A DNA stretch of 59,385 nt, filler included, from Dimargaris cristalligena (Eukaryota), in NCBI GenBank assembly GCA_003614675.1. It is 2 parts of 2 records of this genome, joined end to end, with 100 filler letters (N's around TTAATTAATTAA, not from the genome) between each part and the next. Parts side by side here need not be neighbours in the genome. Positions count along the whole stretch, not along the records: positions 29,782 to 59,385 come from ML002479.1; 1 more part is not named here. The stretch is one strand, 5' to 3'. The number at the start of each line of letters is the position of its first letter. Position 1 is the first letter of the stretch. This document shows positions 29,682-55,273 of the stretch, one piece after another. The translations under genes and the position numbers were made by a program. The notes under the pieces were generated by a model that was given only the letters and a program-made list of their open reading frames with translations, ran no database searches and had not been told where the DNA came from.

Positions 29682-29781
29682 NNNNNNNNNNNNNNNNNNN
29701 NNNNNNNNNNNNNNNNNNNNNNNNNTTAATTAATTAANNNNNNNNNNNNNNNNNNNNNNNNNNNNNNNNNNNNNNNNNNNN
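29682..29781. other. Assembly gap containing an artificial TTAATTAATTAA linker
   Basis: N runs flank TTAATTAATTAA (29726-29737), which gives stops in all six frames. Confidence 0.95.
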
Positions 29782-29836
29782 CACCTAGTCCTTCATAGGT
29801 AGTCGGCTTTAATCCTTTAGATTATTAAGCACGACA
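29782..29836 (-). repeat. 3' LTR (truncated by gap)
   Basis: Identical to 36140-36194. Confidence 0.93.
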
Positions 29837-29848
29837 TCATTCCCCATT
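29837..29848 (-). promoter_or_regulatory. Polypurine tract overlapping the ORF stop
   Basis: Minus strand reads AATGGGGAATGA immediately before the LTR start TGTCGT. Confidence 0.7.
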
Positions 29849-32800
29849 AGACTGGGCTTCGTCCTCGAGCCCTTGAATATAAGGAGCTAATTGAGTGACA
29901 GGGACACGCTCCCGGGGTAGGCGAGTATTATGAACTGCTGGCTCAATTGTATAGGTATTGCCTCCATGTACATCCACAATTGTTACAGGCCCGGCATATC
30001 GGAAACTTAATTTTGTAGGGTCAGTAGGGATCCGGACCATTGCCTGATCACCACAGTGATATTTGATAACTTCAACAGGTATCGGTTGAGAAGGTACATG
30101 TCGAACCATATTATATGCATGGGCTAATCGGTCTCGTAATTGGTCGGTGTACTCGGATCCCGTGGGTGCTGGGTTGGGGTTGATCTCTGGAGTTAATGCA
30201 ACATCAATGGGCATTCGAGGGTCTCGTCCATACATGAGGTAAAAGGGTTTGTTTCGTATGGGGGAGACATAGGCCGTCCGATAGGCAAATAGATGGTAGG
30301 GTATATACATATCCCAATGCTCAGGATCATCAATGGCATATTTAGCAATCATGTGGGACAAGGTTTGATTCAATCGTTCAACTGCACCATTTGCTGCAGG
30401 ATTATAGGCTACTGTAGGGCGATGATTAACTCCTAATAGGCGAAGTACATGCCTTAATAACCGGGATACAAATTGAGGGCCTCGATCAGAGATAAGGACC
30501 CGGGGACATCCATGAATGCAAATGATTTCCTCTAGGATAAAGTTGACTACATCCTGAGCTGTAATGTGCGGTACAGCCCGGGCAAATGGCCACCTTGTGA
30601 AGTAATCAATGGCTACAATGACATACCGGTTTGAACTTTCAGCCACTGGGAATGGTCCTAATATATCAATTCCCACACGATCCAAGGGTGCAGTTAGAGG
30701 GCTTTCCGTTTGGGGCTGTGGTACAGTCTGGGATCGATGTAGTTGGCAGGTAGGACAATTACGTACATGTTCTTGGACATCCTTTACCATAGTGGGCCAG
30801 TATAAAGATTGTTGGAGACGATGCTGTACTGTAGTAGTGCCTAAATGGCCAGCCCCCATAGCTTCATGGGCTGCAGTGAGGGCAGCCGGACGGTGTACCG
30901 CAGGTAGGTATAGGCGATTGATCCCATTAATTGTTTGATATACCAATCCTTCTTGAATAATAAAGGTTTGGCCACGGCCACGAAATGATTGTTTGGTTTT
31001 GTTCCCCATCCGTTGAATTAGGTTATGAACTTCTGGATCGTTCTTTTGGTCGAGACCCATTTGGTCATTGGCAACAGATATTAGAAAGGCTTTTGGTGCA
31101 GCTTCTTCAATCACTACGGGATTCTCCAAGGAAGGCCTATCTGTAGAACCAAAACTACCATCCCCTCGTTGAGTATTATCCAGATCAGCTACTTCCACTA
31201 AATTGGGGGTTGCATTGGGGATAAATAGTAGTTGGGCAATCTTTGCCTGGGGCATAAGGGTGTACTCAGTTGCAGTTAGATTATGTAGGACCACAGATAT
31301 TTCCCCTCGGTAATCACTATCTATAATCCCAGCGCGAATAGCAATACCCTGGATTCCTAATGAACTTCGCTCCCAGATCTGGGCATGATACTGGGGTGGC
31401 ATTTGAAGAGCCCACCCAATAGCAACAGCTTGAAAACTGTGAGGACTAAGGTGGACTTTCCGGTAAGTATATAGATCATACCCTGCTGACCCTGGAGTAC
31501 CTCGATTTGGAAGGGTAGCCTTAGGGTGGCATCGACGAATACAAAACTCTAATAGACTTTCAGTATTCAAGCTATTTACCATTACCCCATCTGGTTCGGA
31601 TAGTGCAGTGGGTAGGGCTAACCGGGATAATCCATCAGCATTATTGTGTATTCTCCCAGGCCGGTGATGTATTTCGAAATCGTAATCTTGGAGGGTGAGA
31701 TACCATCGTTCCAAACGTCCAGAACGAGGTGTAGTTGATTGTAACCACTTCAATGGAGCATGGTCAGTTTCCAAGATGAACTTACGGCCATATAAATAGG
31801 GTCGAAATTTCTGTAGAGCATACACTGCAGCTAGGCATTCCTTTTCAGTGACTGTATAGTTCTTTTGGGCTTTCTCCAGACTGGCACTAGCATATGCTAC
31901 GGCATATTCTTCTTTCCCTTCCCGCTGAGTTAGGATGGCACCCACACCATGATCGGAGGCATCTGTTTGCACAATGAACTGTTTGTTGAAATCTGGGTAG
32001 CGTAGGATGGGATTGGTGGTCAGGGCATTCCTTAGGTCATCAAATTCGGCCTGTTCAGCTTTACCCCAGGTAAATGGGATACCCTTTTGCATTAATCGGC
32101 GTAAATGTGTAGCCCTCATTGAAAATCGAGGTACAAACCGCCGGTAATAAGATGTGAGCCCAATGAAACTTTGTACACCTTTGAGGTTAGTTGGTGGTGG
32201 CATAGCCCGTATGGCTTCAAGTTTTTCAGGGTTGGGTCGAATTCCTTCCCGAGATACCATGTGGCCTAGGTAAGGTACACAATCAGCACCAAAAGTACAT
32301 TTACTCTTCTTAAGCTGGAGGCCATGTTTTTGAAGGGTACGAAGTACTTGTTGAATATCCTGACAGTGTTGTTTAAAGTCCGGGGAGAAGATAATAATAT
32401 CATCTAGATAAACTAGACAGCAGACATTAATATGCTCACCCAAGACCTCATTCATTAATCGCTGAAAAGTGGCTGGGGCATTGCACAATCCAAAAGGCAT
32501 TACTGTAAATTCATACAGTGCATCACCAGTTGTAAAGGCAGTTTTCTTGATGTCACCGGGCTCCATGGGAATTTGCCAATACCCAGAAGCTAGGTCCAGA
32601 GTAGTAAAATATCGGGCAGATCCCAACCGGTCAATGGCTTCTTCGATACTAGGTAGGGGGTAGGCATCCTTTCTGGTTACTTTGTTTAATTTTCGGTAAT
32701 CTACGCAGAACCGAGTAGAGCCATCCTTCTTCAGTACTGGGGTAATGGGACTTGCCCAGGCACTATTGGAAGGCTGAATGACCCCATTTTCCAACATTTC

Positions 32801-35611
32801 CTGGACTTCCTTGACTAGGTTTGCCTTTTTTGCCCATGGTGTCCGGTAGGCCCGACTTCGAATTGGTTTTGTATCAAGCAACTCAATTTGATGAGTGGTA
32901 CTAGCAGTTACATGGGGTCTTTTAGGGTTCTCTGCGAAGAACCCATATTTACTGACCAGTTTGGTCAAAGTTTCCCGCTCCTCTGAGGTTAGTTGTTTTC
33001 CTAAGGGGAGGTCAGTGGGCATTGTGATTTCAGGACTAGCTGATACAGTTGCTATCCGAGTTTTGGGCATCAATACTATAGGTTCCCCAGTGGGATTCCT
33101 AACCATAACCTGGGTTTCTTGGTTGGTAAATGCAGCTATTCCTTCCAGGGCTCGGGTGGTATGGTGGTGCAAGGAATGCACAAAAGCAGTCACTGGTACA
33201 GGGCCATCAGCTCGGACAGGGGTAGCTACTAAACCTCCAGGAGGTATAGTTGTTGGGTGGATTACTCTGAGGGTAGTCTGTTGTCCACCCAGGGCCAGTG
33301 TTCGGCGGGCAATATCAATAACTGGCTGGGCCTGATCTGCCCAGTTGGTCCCCAGTAGAAAACTTCCATGGGGTAATACAGCAGCAGTAACTGGTACTAC
33401 TACTGCTCCCACTGTTATTTCCACTTCCACATAGCGGCTGACTGCAATACGTCTCTTATCGCCTAGTACAATGTACCCAGAGCCTATGGGGGGTATATTC
33501 TTGACCTCCCGGGGTAAGAGAGACTCCGGGATAACTGAGATTTGGGCCCCCGTATCTAGTACTGCTTCACGGGGTTCCCCATTAACCAGAACATGGATTT
33601 TGTATTGTGATCCAATATCTGTAGCAGTAACAGCAGCTACAACAGCATCAGATTCATCCTCGGTAGCCAAGCTACTGGAGGAGTCCTCTTCTGAGTCATA
33701 ATCAGAAGAAATTTCAACTTGTTGAATTTTGGGGTTTTTCCTCTGAGGGCAGTCGGCCATGAAATGTCCAGTTTTTCCACACTTGAAACAGGAACTGGAG
33801 TTCTTTGCCGGGGCTTTGCCTTGGGTTGGTTTATCCTCACTAAGAGCTGACTTTTCTTTACTTGATTGTTGACGGTTAGTTCGGTGGTCTTGGTAATGTC
33901 CTGGTGATTCAAACCGGCGAGACTGGCGTTCATAGTCTCGGATATAGGATGCATTAAGAATCCTCTCATGGACCTTATGGTACAACTCCTTCCAGTTGGT
34001 ATAGTCATTGTAGATAAGGGCATCAAACCACTTAGATGGAAGGACCCTCAAAAGGTGGTACTTGATTTGGGATTTGTCTAACCCAATTGACTCCCCAAGT
34101 GAGATGACTTTACTAAAGTAATATAGATACTCAGTCTTCCTGTCCCACTTGGCCTTGGCTAGTTCTTCCTGAATACTGGCATAGCGGTTGACACCTTCCA
34201 GTTCTTCCAGTAGTTGGTCTCGGAAATCACTCCAACTTTTGATGTTTTGGTGAAATGCTGTATGCCAATCTCGAAGGGGGGCACTGATTGCACTAAGGGC
34301 TTCTACCAGGGTCTGTACAGGGTCCCATCGGTTGGCTCTGGCTACATAGTCAACCTGAATAGTCCAGGTCCTAACACTAGTAGTATCACTTTCCCTAAGC
34401 CTAGGAATACTCTTGGGTCCAATTACTAAGCCAGTGGGTTGATCATGACTATAACTGTAGTTTTCCAGGGTATGGCGACTCTGAGGGGTGGGCCTATGGT
34501 TTCGAGGTCCAGTACTAGGCAGTACAAACTCATCATTCTGATAACTGGACTGAAGCCTCGGGGTAGGTGTAGCTGTACAGTCTGTTTCCTTATTCTGATG
34601 AGGGGTGGGGTTCATGGTCAGTAAGTTGAATTTCCTGGTCATATCCCGCTGGATTTCCCGCATTACTTGCAGGGTTTCTTGGTTCTGGCTGTCCGTCCGT
34701 GCCCATCGCTCTTCCATAAGTGCTGCTTGGTCACTCTGGTTCCTGATAGTATCACTGAAGATTCGGAGGGAGCTTGCCATCTCTTCCTGGGTCTTCTGGA
34801 TCCTTGCCAAATTTGAGTGCATGAATTGTAGCTCACTTTCCATGGCTTGCTGACGTCCTTCCTGCTGCCGTACCTGTTGTTGGAGTTCTGTCATCCTGAC
34901 TGCTTCCTCGGTGACTATTTGGCGTACTGCAGGTGTTCCTAGCATTCCAGCAATAGTTTGATTTAAACTGTCCGTTGCTGGCTGTGCTCTTTGCTCCTGG
35001 CTGGATCGGCCTGCCTGATTAATCCGCGCCTGCTGAGTGATCCCCAACAGCTGTCTTGCTGATTCGTTGATTGACCCTGGCTGATCCCTGTTGGATCTTG
35101 CCTGATCTTGGGATACTGTACGCTGTTGACTTGGGGCTGGGGGTCTACCTTGACCCCGAAATTGTTGACCAGTACCTTCAGTCATTCTGGTTCCAGTAGT
35201 AAAGTCGAACTGTCCGATTGGTTCACTTTGTAATAACTGGACTGCAGTCTCACTAGACTGGATGGGTGCTACTTCGATTGGTTGGTTTAACAGATTACCA
35301 ATAGTAGGTGTGGTGGTGCTTACCCCAGAAGTAATTATACTTGTTGGCCGGGTTTGCCCACCAGTTCCTTCACAAGGAATACTAGCTTCACTAGTGGCCA
35401 CTGTCCTAGTAGGCTGGAGCTGTCTATGATTTCGCTGGTCGAACTCCTGAGTGCTATACTCGAAAATTTCCGCTGTTATACGTTGTTCCTCTTCTGTCAA
35501 TGACTCTTCCTCTGGGGCACTTATTGTAGCTCGCTGGGACCGGGTTGCTGAACGAGTTCGGGTGGCTATTCCTTCACCTGGGTTGCTATCCTTGGTGGCT
35601 CTTCGGCTCAT
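29837..35611 (-). CDS. Gag-Pol polyprotein: Gag/CCHC, protease, RT, RNase H, dUTPase, integrase
   Basis: CFKCGKTGHFMADC; LDTGA; LDLASGYWQ, MPFGLCNAPATF, YLDD; TDAS, TDHAPL, ADGLSR; dUTPase motifs; H..GH..CPTC, GIDILGP, SDRGPQF, VERLN; GPV. First ATG at 35611; no stop or frameshift. Confidence 0.96.
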   Translation of the reverse strand: MSRRATKDSNPGEGIATRTRSATRSQRATISAPEEESLTEEEQRITAEIFEYSTQEFDQRNHRQLQPTRTVATSEASIPCEGTGGQTRPTSIITSGVSTTTPTIGNLLNQPIEVAPIQSSETAVQLLQSEPIGQFDFTTGTRMTEGTGQQFRGQGRPPAPSQQRTVSQDQARSNRDQPGSINESARQLLGITQQARINQAGRSSQEQRAQPATDSLNQTIAGMLGTPAVRQIVTEEAVRMTELQQQVRQQEGRQQAMESELQFMHSNLARIQKTQEEMASSLRIFSDTIRNQSDQAALMEERWARTDSQNQETLQVMREIQRDMTRKFNLLTMNPTPHQNKETDCTATPTPRLQSSYQNDEFVLPSTGPRNHRPTPQSRHTLENYSYSHDQPTGLVIGPKSIPRLRESDTTSVRTWTIQVDYVARANRWDPVQTLVEALSAISAPLRDWHTAFHQNIKSWSDFRDQLLEELEGVNRYASIQEELAKAKWDRKTEYLYYFSKVISLGESIGLDKSQIKYHLLRVLPSKWFDALIYNDYTNWKELYHKVHERILNASYIRDYERQSRRFESPGHYQDHRTNRQQSSKEKSALSEDKPTQGKAPAKNSSSCFKCGKTGHFMADCPQRKNPKIQQVEISSDYDSEEDSSSSLATEDESDAVVAAVTATDIGSQYKIHVLVNGEPREAVLDTGAQISVIPESLLPREVKNIPPIGSGYIVLGDKRRIAVSRYVEVEITVGAVVVPVTAAVLPHGSFLLGTNWADQAQPVIDIARRTLALGGQQTTLRVIHPTTIPPGGLVATPVRADGPVPVTAFVHSLHHHTTRALEGIAAFTNQETQVMVRNPTGEPIVLMPKTRIATVSASPEITMPTDLPLGKQLTSEERETLTKLVSKYGFFAENPKRPHVTASTTHQIELLDTKPIRSRAYRTPWAKKANLVKEVQEMLENGVIQPSNSAWASPITPVLKKDGSTRFCVDYRKLNKVTRKDAYPLPSIEEAIDRLGSARYFTTLDLASGYWQIPMEPGDIKKTAFTTGDALYEFTVMPFGLCNAPATFQRLMNEVLGEHINVCCLVYLDDIIIFSPDFKQHCQDIQQVLRTLQKHGLQLKKSKCTFGADCVPYLGHMVSREGIRPNPEKLEAIRAMPPPTNLKGVQSFIGLTSYYRRFVPRFSMRATHLRRLMQKGIPFTWGKAEQAEFDDLRNALTTNPILRYPDFNKQFIVQTDASDHGVGAILTQREGKEEYAVAYASASLEKAQKNYTVTEKECLAAVYALQKFRPYLYGRKFILETDHAPLKWLQSTTPRSGRLERWYLTLQDYDFEIHHRPGRIHNNADGLSRLALPTALSEPDGVMVNSLNTESLLEFCIRRCHPKATLPNRGTPGSAGYDLYTYRKVHLSPHSFQAVAIGWALQMPPQYHAQIWERSSLGIQGIAIRAGIIDSDYRGEISVVLHNLTATEYTLMPQAKIAQLLFIPNATPNLVEVADLDNTQRGDGSFGSTDRPSLENPVVIEEAAPKAFLISVANDQMGLDQKNDPEVHNLIQRMGNKTKQSFRGRGQTFIIQEGLVYQTINGINRLYLPAVHRPAALTAAHEAMGAGHLGTTTVQHRLQQSLYWPTMVKDVQEHVRNCPTCQLHRSQTVPQPQTESPLTAPLDRVGIDILGPFPVAESSNRYVIVAIDYFTRWPFARAVPHITAQDVVNFILEEIICIHGCPRVLISDRGPQFVSRLLRHVLRLLGVNHRPTVAYNPAANGAVERLNQTLSHMIAKYAIDDPEHWDMYIPYHLFAYRTAYVSPIRNKPFYLMYGRDPRMPIDVALTPEINPNPAPTGSEYTDQLRDRLAHAYNMVRHVPSQPIPVEVIKYHCGDQAMVRIPTDPTKLSFRYAGPVTIVDVHGGNTYTIEPAVHNTRLPRERVPVTQLAPYIQGLEDEAQSNGE
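31140..31550 (-). other. Trimeric dUTPase domain within Pol
   Basis: Motifs I-V: AGYDL, ERSSLG, GIIDSDYRGE, KIAQL, RGDGSFGST. Confidence 0.95.
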
Positions 35612-35706
35612 GGGGGCGCAGTGGTCAAAATGGGTGGCCGGTAGGTTGAGTAGGTAGGTTGATAATAGAGGGAGAAGGCAGTGGGTAAGAAAATGATCGA
35701 AATTGT

Positions 35707-35718
35707 GGTCCTCCACCA
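35707..35718 (-). promoter_or_regulatory. Primer-binding site, probably tRNA-Ala
   Basis: TGGTGGAGGACC begins 1 nt inside the LTR end; TGGTGGA is complementary to the UCCA-CCA 3' end of tRNA-Ala. Confidence 0.7.
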
Positions 35719-35719
35719 A

Positions 35720-36194
35720 TGTCGTAGGCTAAATTCCACAATATGCTAAATGGCTACGCTTCGGACAAGTTTACAAGAGCTAACACACAGGCAGTTGATG
35801 CGAAGGGCGCTTTATAGATAAGAATAAGGGAGATATCTAATAGATTGAGTTAACTATAAAAGGGGGTATAGAATAAATGGTAATTAACTGAAGAGTAACT
35901 ATAGGAATTGGCTCGGCTTTATATAGCCGAGCAGACTAATGGTAAAGGCATCAAACCGGTATAGAAGATGCTGGAAAACGCTACTAGATAGTAATATAAA
36001 TGATAACTAATAATAGACGGGTATATAATGAAGGTGATATATAGAATATGTGAATCGAGTGGCGGGAATGGCTGAAGGATGCTGATCCTTCAACAAGGCC
36101 GAATTCCCGCGCCTCCTTGATAGAACTAGGTGATGATGACACCTAGTCCTTCATAGGTAGTCGGCTTTAATCCTTTAGATTATTAAGCACGACA
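35720..36194 (-). repeat. 5' LTR (475 bp)
   Basis: TG...CA ends with a 6-bp terminal inverted repeat; TATA-like TATATAAA near 35918-35925 on the minus strand. Confidence 0.95.
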
Positions 36195-36690
36195 GGCGGT
36201 CCCCGCCATTTCAATAAAATTCGCATTTTCTCGACAGCTGAAGTGGCATGTTGGGATGGAATGGGTCTAATGGTACAGGGTAAAATGGTATCCCTTGCCG
36301 GTAGTTACAATTGCTCAGTAACAATGGGGTGATAAATGCCGAAACCCTAAAGTAAAAGCCCAGATCTGACTACGCCTGTCTAGAGGCCCGGTAAGCATGG
36401 AACCACCAGCCCGTTGTCGTATAGCACTGACTCTAATGAATGGAATGCTCTTCCTTATCCCGCCCTTGGCTTTTTTGATACTGTGAAACCGTCTAGTGAT
36501 AGCCCACCGGAAAGTCCCCTAGATGGAGGTAGATGTTTTTCTTAATTTTTCGGTCAATCGACCTCCACTCAAGTAAATACATTTGTTTGAGTTTCCAAGT
36601 AGTGGATTGTAGCAGCAGCCCCCCATGAGGTAAACATATGGAGGCATCATCGCCCCCCTCTTGGTCATAAGTTCCACTGACACAGATTAT
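36195..36690 (+). repeat. Dispersed repeat, copy A (inverted relative to ~54775-55273)
   Basis: Near-identical to the reverse complement of copy B; identity decays toward 36690. Confidence 0.93.
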
Positions 36691-38182
36691 GAAATATCAT
36701 ACTGTATATATCACTTCCAGAAAAAAAATCGGAATACCCCCAGCCATTTTTGTCATTTGCATTGACCTGCTTAGACAGTACAATTGTATGACCGTCCATA
36801 TTGATGCACTACATACTTACTTTTTCAGACTACTAGTATGACCCATTTCTAAAAGCCATCCACACATTTCCCCTGGCTTTGATATATTTTAAATCCGTAG
36901 CCCTCTCCTCCAACATTTAACTTAACCAAGATTTAATTGCCCGATAATAGTAAAATCTGCTGGCAATAGTATTCTACTTACTCTCTTGGTTGAATATATT
37001 GCTAAGCAGTACATGTCGTCAATAATGGCGATAATAAAGACCCCGATGTTTGCCGATATGGTAGCCTTATGGTTAAGCAAGTCCCCCATCCCTTTCCAAA
37101 GCTATTCCCAGTAACCTTATGACTGGGTCCCTGGCTAAAGGGTTGCGATGCTTCAAGGACGCCATTTTTTTCCTTACTCGCTACCATGCGACTTCCAGAG
37201 ATATCCTTATCCATCTGCACATCACACATGGCATACATCAAATGCCAGTATCTACAAGAGGAGAGACTCGGTACCACCTCCCTAATCTCATAAAAATTCG
37301 GCGCGTGAACTTAGAATACCTAGTAAGTCGGAAGACAGCTAGTTGCCAAATATTTTGGTTATTGCAGCTTTGCCCGCCCAGCCCTTCCACCTAATCCCCT
37401 AGCAGTCAGTCGGTTCTATAGCGATTAAAAGATCTGGTAGGTATTTTTCTCGTGCCCTCTGTATCCCCTCTTTGTACTGCGTCTATATAGGCCGCTTAAC
37501 TTACAAAAGGGGTTAAGATATAGCAGCCATTACTTTTATATATATATATTTAGAATAGCTCGGGTATAATTAGGACACGGGTATTACATTAAATATAATG
37601 TCAATCTTCCCTTATAAAATTATTTAACCATTACTTACAGCCATCGACCATTCGGCCTACTATATCCGGTCAGCTGCAGCTAATCGTAGAACACATCTCA
37701 AGCACCAAATCTCACCCCAAAGCTTGAAAGCGAGTAATCGGAATTTCCGGATTTGTGGTCGCCGCGATAGATTTGGTTGATAATGCATGAGAGAAGTTCA
37801 TTCAGGCTGTATAACGAAAAATCCATTGGATGAGACCAAGATTACTGGTTAAAAGCTATTCTCACATATATTCACCCATGCACGTATTATGTAAACCCTT
37901 ATATAGCTGGTTTGAATTTCACCTATATTAAATTAAGCCGCCCAGCAAAAGCTAGCCTTGGCCAACAGCAGTGATTAAAAGTTCATTAATAAAAATAAAA
38001 AAACTTTTTTAAAAAAAATATGAAAATAACACCTGACGCCCCTGGCCTTTTAGGAAAGGTAATAATATTATTAAAAGTATATATAGATTCTTCGGTTTTA
38101 AATGTGTCTTAAGGAGCACAGCCCAAAAAATAAGAATAAAAGAATTCGATGACCAACTTCGCGCACGCCGGACCTACTCACA

Positions 38183-52435: not shown

Positions 52436-54155
52436 CTAAGTTTCGTACAGGCGATTAAGTCGCACCAGCTCATTCTGAATAGTAGTGGCACGCTGCATTG
52501 TTTTCTCGAGGGTCTCTCCCTCAGCGGCTACAACGGAGCCTTCGACCACGATGTGTGATGGGTCCACCAGTTCCACGACTCTGAGATTCATGTGCAGAAG
52601 CTTAAGTGAATGAAACGGTCGATTCCAAAAAAAAACAAAAAAAACAGGGGCATATATTAGACAAATAATAGTGCCTGGGTAGTGTCCGATATGGTACCAT
52701 CCCCCTTTTCGCCCTTAGGGAAACGCGCCCGTGGGATAATGTCAGTCATTTGAGTAGACAGCCGAGCATACTCAATCATAGAAATACCTCTAATTGACAT
52801 TATTAGGAAACTTACCGTATGCCTTAGGCGATAGGTGGCTAGGGGGCTTATTCCATTGACTGCTGGGATATTAAACACATTTCGAAGTGTATTGGCATGA
52901 CAAGTAAATTCGACCATCTTGACCTCGAATGGTCCTAAACCATCGGGAACCGAATCCACTTCATCATTATTAATGGTATCCGCCTGTTCATCCCGGAAGA
53001 TGGTGGCCTGGCATTGGAAGAGGGTGTAGATGCCGAAATCGAAGTCTGAGCGGAGGGGCCTTTTCGTACCCGGACTGGTGAAATGTAGCGATAGATGGGC
53101 CCCATAAGGACGGAAGTGTGGGAGTTGCAAGGTAAAGGATTCGTGCCGGGTACTAAAGGGTACGAATGTAAGCCTTTCACTATCGACGGATTGCCCTAAT
53201 TGACCAGTTTGTCTCAAAAAGGTCGTTGGTGATCCGAGTGGCAATAGTTCGCTGATAACCAAGTAGGGTTGGTTTATTGGAGGCCAGAAAAAGAATCGAT
53301 AGTGAAAGGAATTCGATTAATAGACGTGGTAGGTAATCAATGCCTTTAGGCGGAAAGCCCAAAGGTTAGCCTAGGTCTCGAATGATAGATACACATGAAT
53401 CAAATGTACTGCTCAAGTAAATAAATTGGTGGGCGGTTGTTTTATTGAATATCGATAGAACTTACTATTTGGGCATATCATCGACCGGTCCAGACTCTGT
53501 TGATTCAGCGGGCTTAGTTAAGGTTGGGTCGGGCAGATTGGCCTAAATATACAACAGCGTGTCATTAAATGTGAGTATGAATTGGGGATGTATAAGTTAG
53601 ACCAGGGTACGCTCGTTAAACTGGATCAAGGGTGGTAGCTAACTGAACGGGGGGGTTTATAATACCTACAGTTGTATTATAGCTAAGAATCACCCGTTGG
53701 TCACTTACATCAGGTACAAGGGAGCCAGTAGTAGGTGTCCCATCGAGTCCCGGTGCAGTCTCCGCTAGTACCAAGCGTAGCTGAATGTACGCCTCGGGTA
53801 TCGGCACCTTTGACGTATTCCGGACAGTAACATCCACCCGCGGCCGCCTATCCAGCATGTCCTCACGATCGGCAGCGGTCTGGTGAGGCAAGGCAGCAGA
53901 GACTTGCGCACTGATGCGGACGTTCTGCTGGAGGTAGCTTTCCATGAGGTCATTCATGGCCTGCGTCATATCCAGCGTCCGTTGCATGGACAGAGACAGG
54001 GTTTGCATGAGGGAACCTAGGGTACTTTGAACTCCGCTCAAATTGGTTTGCATGAGCTGGGCCACCTGCCCAAGGGGCGAATCGAAGGGTTCAGAAGTCT
54101 CGGCCGAGGTCGAGGCAGAGGGATGGGTGTTGGGGGACTCAGGATTGGATTCCAT
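52436..54155 (-). CDS. Uncharacterised protein, 4 exons
   Basis: Exons ~54155-53670, 53542-53466, 53252-52815 and ~52600-52436 join in frame at GT-AG sites; no family recognised. Confidence 0.65.
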
Positions 54156-54774
54156 GGCAACTGGATGGGGAGGGGGCACAGGCGTTTGGATAAGGCTCGA
54201 TGGAATTTACACAAAAAAGGAAACGCTGCGATAGAAGAGGTAGGTGAGGGATGGGGTTTTCTCAAACTTCGAAATTAGGGATACAATAATTAACAAGGGG
54301 GGGGGCTTTGGTCGGGCAGGTGGTATGAATAATACTTGTGGTGAGGGCAAGGGGAACGAGATGTACTTAAGCTGGCCCATACTCTGGGGGCTGGTGGGCC
54401 TAATAATTGCCGGGGATAGCAAATAAGGCTCTGGCTTGGGTTTGGTCAAGCTTAGTTGGGCAGGAGGAACAGGCCCCATTCCCTTAGAATCCATTGTCCA
54501 GGAACCCTGTTTGATTACCCAAAAAGATAAGCATATTCTTCAATTCGAAAGCCCTGCAGCATACTAAATAAAACATGAACAAACTGGATATAGTCTATTT
54601 CGGTATTGGGATATCCCCGTTGAAATATACATATAGATGAAATTCAAACTAGCTGTATAAAGGTATACATAATATGTGTATGGGATAATATGCGAGATAA
54701 AATATTTTAACCAATAACCTTGACCACATCTAATGGATTTTTCGTTATATAGCCTGCATAAAATTCTACTATAT

Positions 54775-55273
54775 ATCATAGTGTGCATCAGTGGAACTTA
54801 TGCTGAAGAGAGGGGCGATGATGCCTCCATAGGTTCACTAAATGGGGGGCTGCTGCTACAATCCACTACTTGGAAACTCAAACAAATGTATTTACTTGAG
54901 TGGAGGTCGATTGACCGAAAAATTAAGAGAAACACCTACCTCCATCTAGGGGACTTTTCGGTGGGCTATCACTAGACGATTTCACAGTATCAAAAAAGCC
55001 AAGGGCGGGATAAGGAAGAGCATTCCATTCATTAGAGTCAGTGCTATACGACAACGGGCTGGTGGTTCCATGCTTACCGGGCCTCTAGACAGGCGTAGTC
55101 AGATCTGGGCTTTTACTTTAGGGTTTCGGCATTTATCACCCCATTGTTACTGAGCAATTGTAACTACCGGCAAGGGATACCATTTTACCCTGTACCATTA
55201 GACCCATTCCATCCCAACATGCCACTTCAGCTGTCGAGAAAATGTGAATTTTATTGAAATGGCGGGGACCGCC
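54775..55273 (-). repeat. Dispersed repeat, copy B
   Basis: Reverse complement of 36195-36690. Confidence 0.93.

Follow-up and report, generated by a model that had tools for sequence, protein, structure and literature searches.

The locus examined here raises the question of why a Ty3/Gypsy retrotransposon of a fungus, Dimargaris cristalligena, carries a dUTPase (DUT) between RNase H (RH) and integrase (IN), whether this domain is a working enzyme, and whence the enzyme and its position came. We analyzed a window of 59,385 nucleotides (the whole stretch taken from assembly GCA_003614675.1, filler included), in which the element lies at 29782–36194 on the minus strand and encodes a single Gag-Pol frame of 1924 amino acids. 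The stop-free frame (29837–35728, minus strand) spans 1963 amino acids from stop to stop, the shorter length being counted from the first ATG at 35611; domain residue numbers are positions on the 1963-residue frame. An earlier note on this DNA had called the element Ty3/Gypsy, and this identity is borne out by the Pfam order protease (PR), reverse transcriptase (RT), RH and IN, by the LTRs, and by the grouping of the RT. The dUTPase is inserted into this order between RH and IN. RNase H matches PF17917 and PF17919, both Ty3-type families, and RT and RNase H are not of retroviral type, the closest RT relatives of the element being Gypsy polyproteins. It does not class as a chromovirus either, i.e., PF00385 has no match in the Gag-Pol frame, which stops at the 3' LTR; no env gene was found downstream of pol.

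Features of the dUTPase-bearing Ty3/Gypsy element, in window coordinates
Feature	Position	Strand	Remarks
5' LTR	35720..36194	-	475 bp, TG...CA, 6-bp terminal inverted repeat; 99–100% identical copies elsewhere in genome
Primer-binding site	35706..35718	-	13 nt complementary to 3' end of host tRNA-Ala(AGC), 1 nt from LTR
Gag-Pol ORF	29837..35611	-	1924 aa from first ATG; stop codon abuts 3' LTR
Gag CCHC zinc knuckle	33743..33793	-	PF00098, frame residues 646–662
Aspartyl protease	33341..33595	-	Pfam, residues 712–796; DTGA at 33545–33556
Reverse transcriptase core	32258..32734	-	Pfam, residues 999–1157; YLDD at 32399–32410
Ty3-type RNase H	31622..31993	-	PF17917 (to 31682), residues 1246–1349; ends NADGLSR 31622–31642
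dUTPase domain, five motifs	31142..31522	-	PF00692, residues 1403–1529
Integrase HHCC zinc-binding domain	30731..30904	-	PF17921 (Integrase_H2C2), residues 1609–1666
Integrase catalytic core (Pfam-matched part)	30398..30691	-	PF00665 (rve), residues 1680–1777
Integrase C-terminal GPY/F-like module	29894..30076	-	frame sequence; without chromodomain
Short purine-rich tract, putative polypurine tract	29837..29848	-	inferred; adjoins 3' LTR
3' LTR, first 55 bp only	29782..29836	-	identical to 5' LTR; cut by gap

The gap that cuts the 3' LTR (29682–29781) consists of two runs of N separated by a TTAATTAATTAA spacer. In the contig to its left we saw neither the remainder of the 3' LTR nor the flanking repeat in its empty-site form, and because of this gap a target-site duplication is not visible for the window copy. 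A 503-bp repeat is present as two inverted copies with 96% identity (36195–36697 and 54771–55273); the 5' LTR abuts one of them exactly where the match ends, and an ORF of 196 aa without Pfam match (53616–54206, minus strand) adjoins the other. The window also contains a KAT11/Rtt109-type gene identified by Pfam, a type that we take to be fungus-specific. This gene marks the host as a fungus, as do the named relatives of Vps23, all of them fungal.

The five dUTPase motifs that the earlier note had read in frame between the RNase H terminus (NADGLSR) and the integrase zinc finger, at 31140–31550, were all found there. The profile check that it had proposed gave a PF00692 match with an E-value of 3.2e-31 and a score of 108 bits (cut-off 22), extending over profile positions 2–128 of 129. 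The motifs follow the canonical order, i.e., AGYDL (31472–31486), RSSL (31358–31369), GIIDSDYRGEI (31298–31330), KIAQL (31229–31243), and RGDGSFGST (31142–31168), and contain the key residues D1418, R1454-S1455, I1469-D1470-Y1473, Q1499, and R1521-F1526, with Ser1525 where Gly is usual. With the catalytic Asp, Tyr, Ser, Gln, Arg, and Phe present and the five motifs in order, the domain is a dUTPase of the trimeric type (PF00692). In the available part of PMC3905902, the catalytic and substrate residues of the M-PMV dUTPase are given as Asp42, Arg79, Ser80, Ile94, Asp95, Tyr98, Gln123, and Arg141, and these pair by motif position with D1418, R1454, S1455, I1469, D1470, Y1473, Q1499, and R1521. 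A PDB search returned 78 distinct sequences at E ≤ 0.001, the best 60 of which are all dUTPase-family entries. A single-sequence AlphaFold monomer model had a pLDDT of 32.

The description of the dUTPase as intact thus stands as regards full length, catalytic residues, and motifs, and needs qualifying at one residue of motif 5. The position before Phe is Gly in 68 of the 76 aligned dUTPases that have a residue there, and Ser in the element and its sister copy L057. Ser may also stand here in a betaretroviral dUTPase that is active, a precedent that we did not count as evidence. Compared with the host and metagenome-clade enzymes described below, the domain lacks one residue after motif 2, and the linkers flanking it are poorly conserved between families. 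The serine bears on the possibility that in this subfamily the domain has weakened catalysis or a non-catalytic role, as a processing or folding spacer, a binding partner, or a pseudo-enzyme, as proposed for the remnant in BIV. Retention of the domain does not prove catalysis, since BIV keeps an inactive dUTPase remnant in the same RH–IN slot, and point mutations in the motif-5 loop abolish the EIAV enzyme, as the available portion of PMC4531489 reports for both viruses. Besides this precedent and the serine shared with L057, the faster evolution of the dUTPase relative to RT, RH, and IN in the pairs tested speaks for such a role. We nevertheless hold it to be unlikely, given that the domain is full length and keeps Asp1470, Tyr1473, Ser1455, Gln1499, Arg1521, and Phe1526, that motif 5 of the related L005 family contains the canonical Gly, and that the motif-4 Lys is found in 15 of 80 aligned dUTPases. 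The dUTPase of the element is probably functional.

Substitution patterns in related copies show that the domain is kept by purifying selection as a protein. Between the element and L057, Nei-Gojobori dN/dS of the dUTPase was 0.19 (pN/pS 95% interval 0.11–0.37), compared with 0.14 for RT, 0.10 for RH, and 0.09 for IN; values were 0.07 in a second lineage of the same genome (lineage B, L008 vs. L052) and 0.11 in a clade from metagenomes (L082 vs. L084). In pairs with saturated synonymous sites, dUTPase pN/pS was at most about 0.4. A neutral passenger or artefact, i.e., a chance in-frame insertion, a nested fragment, or a misassembly, might be suspected in a fragmented assembly (2220 contigs) with a gap at the 3' LTR. 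However, the domain sits within one contig and one open frame, families whose synonymous sites are saturated share the domain order, and dN/dS lies well under 1; the recurrence and the dN/dS values refute this reading in the main and leave it highly improbable.

The family has also moved recently, as follows from near-identical LTRs on other contigs and from target duplications: LTRs 99–100% identical to those of the element occur on five other contigs, and perfect 5-bp target duplications flank related LTRs on 9 of the 16 other LTR-bearing contigs examined. The sister copy L057 is near-full, shares 87–92% DNA identity, and carries stops and frameshifts. Relative to window positions 29837–35720, 79 of its differences fall on CpG sites in the window copy and are C>T or G>A changes, which suggests methylation-driven decay of L057.

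A PF00692 profile search of the 30.7-Mb assembly found 33 places, 30 of which were examined. RH-DUT and/or DUT-IN adjacency was observed at 14 of these 30 dUTPase loci, which fall into two divergent lineages. Lineage A, that of the element, accounts for 10, plus one fragment. The other four form lineage B, which has the same order and a very divergent RT (34–36% identity over RT-RH); in two of the four the frame is intact (1918 aa and at least 1851 aa). Two of its members, L051 and L052 (contigs C1325 and C1390), are intact single-ORF Gypsy elements with the order RH-DUT-IN and the RT motif FVDD; their motif 5 does not open with Arg-Gly as is usual, and we take their divergent RT to be Ylt1-like. 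In lineage C (nine loci, plus two C-like fragments) the dUTPase lies upstream of RT, with the protease seen after it in L054 and L056, and lineage D is one locus, L055, with the order PR-DUT-RT. Four Gypsy lineages with dUTPase at three positions are therefore found within one 30.7-Mb assembly. The remaining dUTPase loci are two host-type genes (L001 and L002) and one on a separate contig (L004). In L002 (C725), motif 1 lies outside the main frame; this gene is an intron-split or decayed duplicate. The small contig of L004 (C1902) carries orphan ORFs but no retroelement domains; the L004 dUTPase clusters weakly with that of L055, for whose lineage it is a possible viral donor. A further locus, L178, has a lineage-A-like RNase H and neither dUTPase nor integrase in the following 549 bases, and is uninformative.

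Gypsy-like elements with a dUTPase were also sought in other sources. A first homolog search was dominated by concatenated arthropod gene models, and PF00692 was found in one of the 120 matches listed (P0085). Among 248 proteins gathered, 57 had a dUTPase match, and a further search added five. Once an unclassified RT protein, two proteins of Copia-like type, and the sequences from this genome itself (P0122, the element's own domain, and P0127, i.e., L005) are set aside, 27 Gypsy-like polyproteins carry a dUTPase: 22 after the integrase, four before RT, and one (P0085) between RH and IN. P0136 and 21 similar Gypsy polyproteins have it at the extreme C-terminus after the integrase, and most of them form one RT clade. 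In the polyproteins P0150 and P0194, classed by eye as Copia-like, the dUTPase lies upstream of the integrase. We examined the best 80 of 176 confirmed loci from a metagenome scan; 13 contain a dUTPase, in each case directly after RNase H, and 67 do not. The scan leaned towards the clade of P0085 because this sequence was part of the query, and the 13 loci stem from one ENA accession series and represent about five families. They and P0085 define a Gypsy clade with RH-DUT-IN order in ENA metagenome contigs (P0085, L082–L093, L118). The protein searches and the metagenome scan, the latter possibly without close genomes, found no lineage-A relative with a dUTPase outside this genome, and two IMG/VR scans found no relatives of the element. 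Since most Gypsy relatives lack the dUTPase, the domain is dispensable in general.

Whether these lineages share one acquisition was addressed with the separate RT and dUTPase phylogenies that the earlier note had proposed. RT-RH trees comprised 119 of 249 sequences after clustering and RT-RH-IN trees 40 chosen rows, both as short LG+G4 searches; the dUTPase tests comprised 70 of 80 dUTPases, the ten others being a decayed copy and nine divergent proteins with several domains. Over RT-RH the element is 50–54% identical to Gypsy-type polyproteins and nests among them; its Gypsy clade is not named here because the trees held no named reference elements. Lineage A, lineage B, and the metagenome clade fall apart in the RT-RH and RT-RH-IN trees, and in both, lineage A and the metagenome clade each sit beside dUTPase-less elements. 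Joining these two as one clade was rejected on RT-RH (p-AU = 2e-5), RT-RH-IN (p-AU about 1e-53), and the dUTPase (p-AU = 0.016). The tests did not reject a shared origin of A and B (p-AU = 0.44 on the dUTPase, 0.17 on RT-RH, 0.25 on RT-RH-IN), B being a long branch, and a grouping of B with the metagenome clade was borderline (0.047). The sequence comparisons thus point to at least two, and probably three, independent origins of the RH-DUT-IN layout among Gypsy elements.

The donor of the enzyme was not found with these trees. The element's dUTPase is 39% identical to the host enzyme, 24–28% to those of lineage B, and 33% to that of P0085; the metagenome-clade dUTPase is of cellular type (54% identity to the host gene L001, 33% to the element's). 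A grouping of lineage A with the host dUTPase had a p-AU of 0.009 with fast constrained trees vs. 0.09 with a longer search, and we claim no rejection because of the latter. Recent capture from the host gene is unlikely. Of the independent capture previously proposed, separation from the metagenome clade is upheld by the AU tests and separation from lentiviruses is likely. An exchange of the domain or its arrangement with lentiviruses would account for the shared slot and the similar length of about 130 aa. It is scarcely credible, as the host is a fungus, Gypsy elements have filled the RH–IN slot on two or more independent occasions, and the best PDB matches score 91–80 bits vs. 77 for 1f7d and 48 for 1duc, which we take to be the FIV and EIAV dUTPases, respectively. 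Each of the four slots (before PR, between PR and RT, between RH and IN, and after IN) is occupied in some Gypsy elements, and the match with lentiviruses is therefore convergence rather than shared ancestry; the slots coincide because the inter-domain cleavage linkers of Pol tolerate an extra domain.

We consider it fairly probable that the locus is an autonomous, recently mobile, chromodomain-less Ty3/Gypsy element of lineage A whose active dUTPase, predicted to be released by protease, clears dUTP in the particle, and that its likeness to lentiviruses is convergent. The domain would be packaged with Gag-Pol into the particle, cut out of the polyprotein by the element's own protease, and, as a trimeric-type dUTPase, would then form trimers. 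It would hydrolyze dUTP where tRNA-Ala-primed reverse transcription happens, and uracil, which host uracil-DNA glycosylase (UNG) might otherwise attack, would be kept out of the cDNA. By analogy with non-primate lentiviruses, the dUTPase most likely acts inside the particle, keeping dUTP from RT. The host genome encodes its own intact dUTPase (L001) and a thymidylate synthase, and has two weak partial, exon-like matches to UNG on contig C678. The notion of a host without UNG was dropped in view of these partial matches, and with all three genes considered, uracil in the cDNA is plausibly costly. A uracil-DNA glycosylase is also encoded on an AT-rich, intron-less contig of 2017 bp (L221, C2211), next to a 454-aa frame that by eye has the look of a D5-type primase-helicase; the contig resembles a giant-virus fragment in the assembly.

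An active enzyme could instead work on the nucleotide pool of the host cell, e.g., supplying dUMP for dTTP where host dUTPase is low. Supply of dUMP is the other known role of dUTPases, and four Gypsy lineages with the enzyme at three positions hint at a condition at host level. Yet as a fusion to Pol the enzyme would enter the particle in few copies, and the host has both an intact dUTPase and thymidylate synthase; we regard this as very unlikely and retain action within the particle as the preferred reading. A bolder proposal, which we put forward tentatively and think rather doubtful, is that RH-dUTPase-IN originated separately three times in Ty3/Gypsy (in two lineages of this fungus and one clade from metagenomes), as yet undescribed. 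On this proposal, a state of the host such as high dUTP, or a defence such as uracil-directed destruction of cDNA, would repeatedly select for the enzyme, and would explain why so small a fungal genome has four dUTPase lineages with three positions.

The element fills a Pol slot for which we found no published Gypsy example, and shows that the lentiviral arrangement is not peculiar to lentiviruses but can arise repeatedly by convergence. The biochemistry of its dUTPase is expected to be ordinary; the four lineages of this genome, which differ in position (three) and in sequence type (at least two), supply natural enzymes for direct comparison.

Among known systems, dUTPases in LTR retrotransposons are less rare than the earlier note had supposed: in the accessible portions of the literature they are published for basidiomycetes, Tuber, three rotifer lineages, planarian Burro, and a vertebrate metavirus, to which the 27 Gypsy-like polyproteins are added here. 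The available text of PMC2864245 places the dUTPase at the Pol N-terminus, between PR and RT, or at the Pol C-terminus in PosPlaTy3-3, -4, and -5 of Postia placenta, cites Phanerochaete elements and Tuber Tmt1 as further dUTPase-bearing Ty3/Gypsy elements, describes the fungal acquisitions as independent, and calls the role of the enzyme in LTR retrotransposons unclear. These are, like the window element, fungal Gypsy LTR elements with a dUTPase in Pol; the Postia elements use other Pol positions, whereas the window element uses the RH–IN slot and lacks a chromodomain. Rotifer Juno, Vesta, and TelKA (PMC5408684) and planarian Burro (PMC6431247) likewise combine a Gypsy-type Pol with a dUTPase, but, in the parts of these papers available, differ in the PR–RT slot, in animal hosts, and in extra ORF3 or env-like regions absent from the window element. 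One vertebrate metavirus carries a dUTPase according to the available part of PMC11011659, an Entomophthora preprint, in its accessible part, reports dUTPase as enriched among TE-related domains, and PMC3248453 does not mention dUTP. Among the papers listed by full-text searches, none showed a Gypsy element with a dUTPase between RH and IN (Repbase, Dfam, and GyDB lay outside this search). Capture of dUTPase by Gypsy elements is thus known and frequent, and the RH–IN position appears undescribed; by the comparisons above, this layout has arisen more than once in Gypsy elements. ERV3/ERV-L retroviruses (PMC4299795, as far as available) and the 22 Gypsy-like polyproteins also have the dUTPase in Pol next to the integrase, but downstream of it. 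The metagenome clade has the identical domain order and a dUTPase under purifying selection, as in the element, and differs in its RT lineage and cellular-type dUTPase. The likeness in position to non-primate lentiviruses that the earlier note had drawn is confirmed: in FIV, EIAV, CAEV, and visna virus, RNase H and integrase flank a dUTPase of about 130 aa, which is an active proteolytic product of Gag-Pol and matters in non-dividing cells or where host dUTPase is low (PMC4531489, available part). Slot, approximate length, synthesis in one polyprotein, and the proposed working principle are thus shared with the window element; in contrast to these Retroviridae with env, the element has no env, has a Ty3-type RNase H, and has a dUTPase whose sequence is not especially close to those of lentiviruses.
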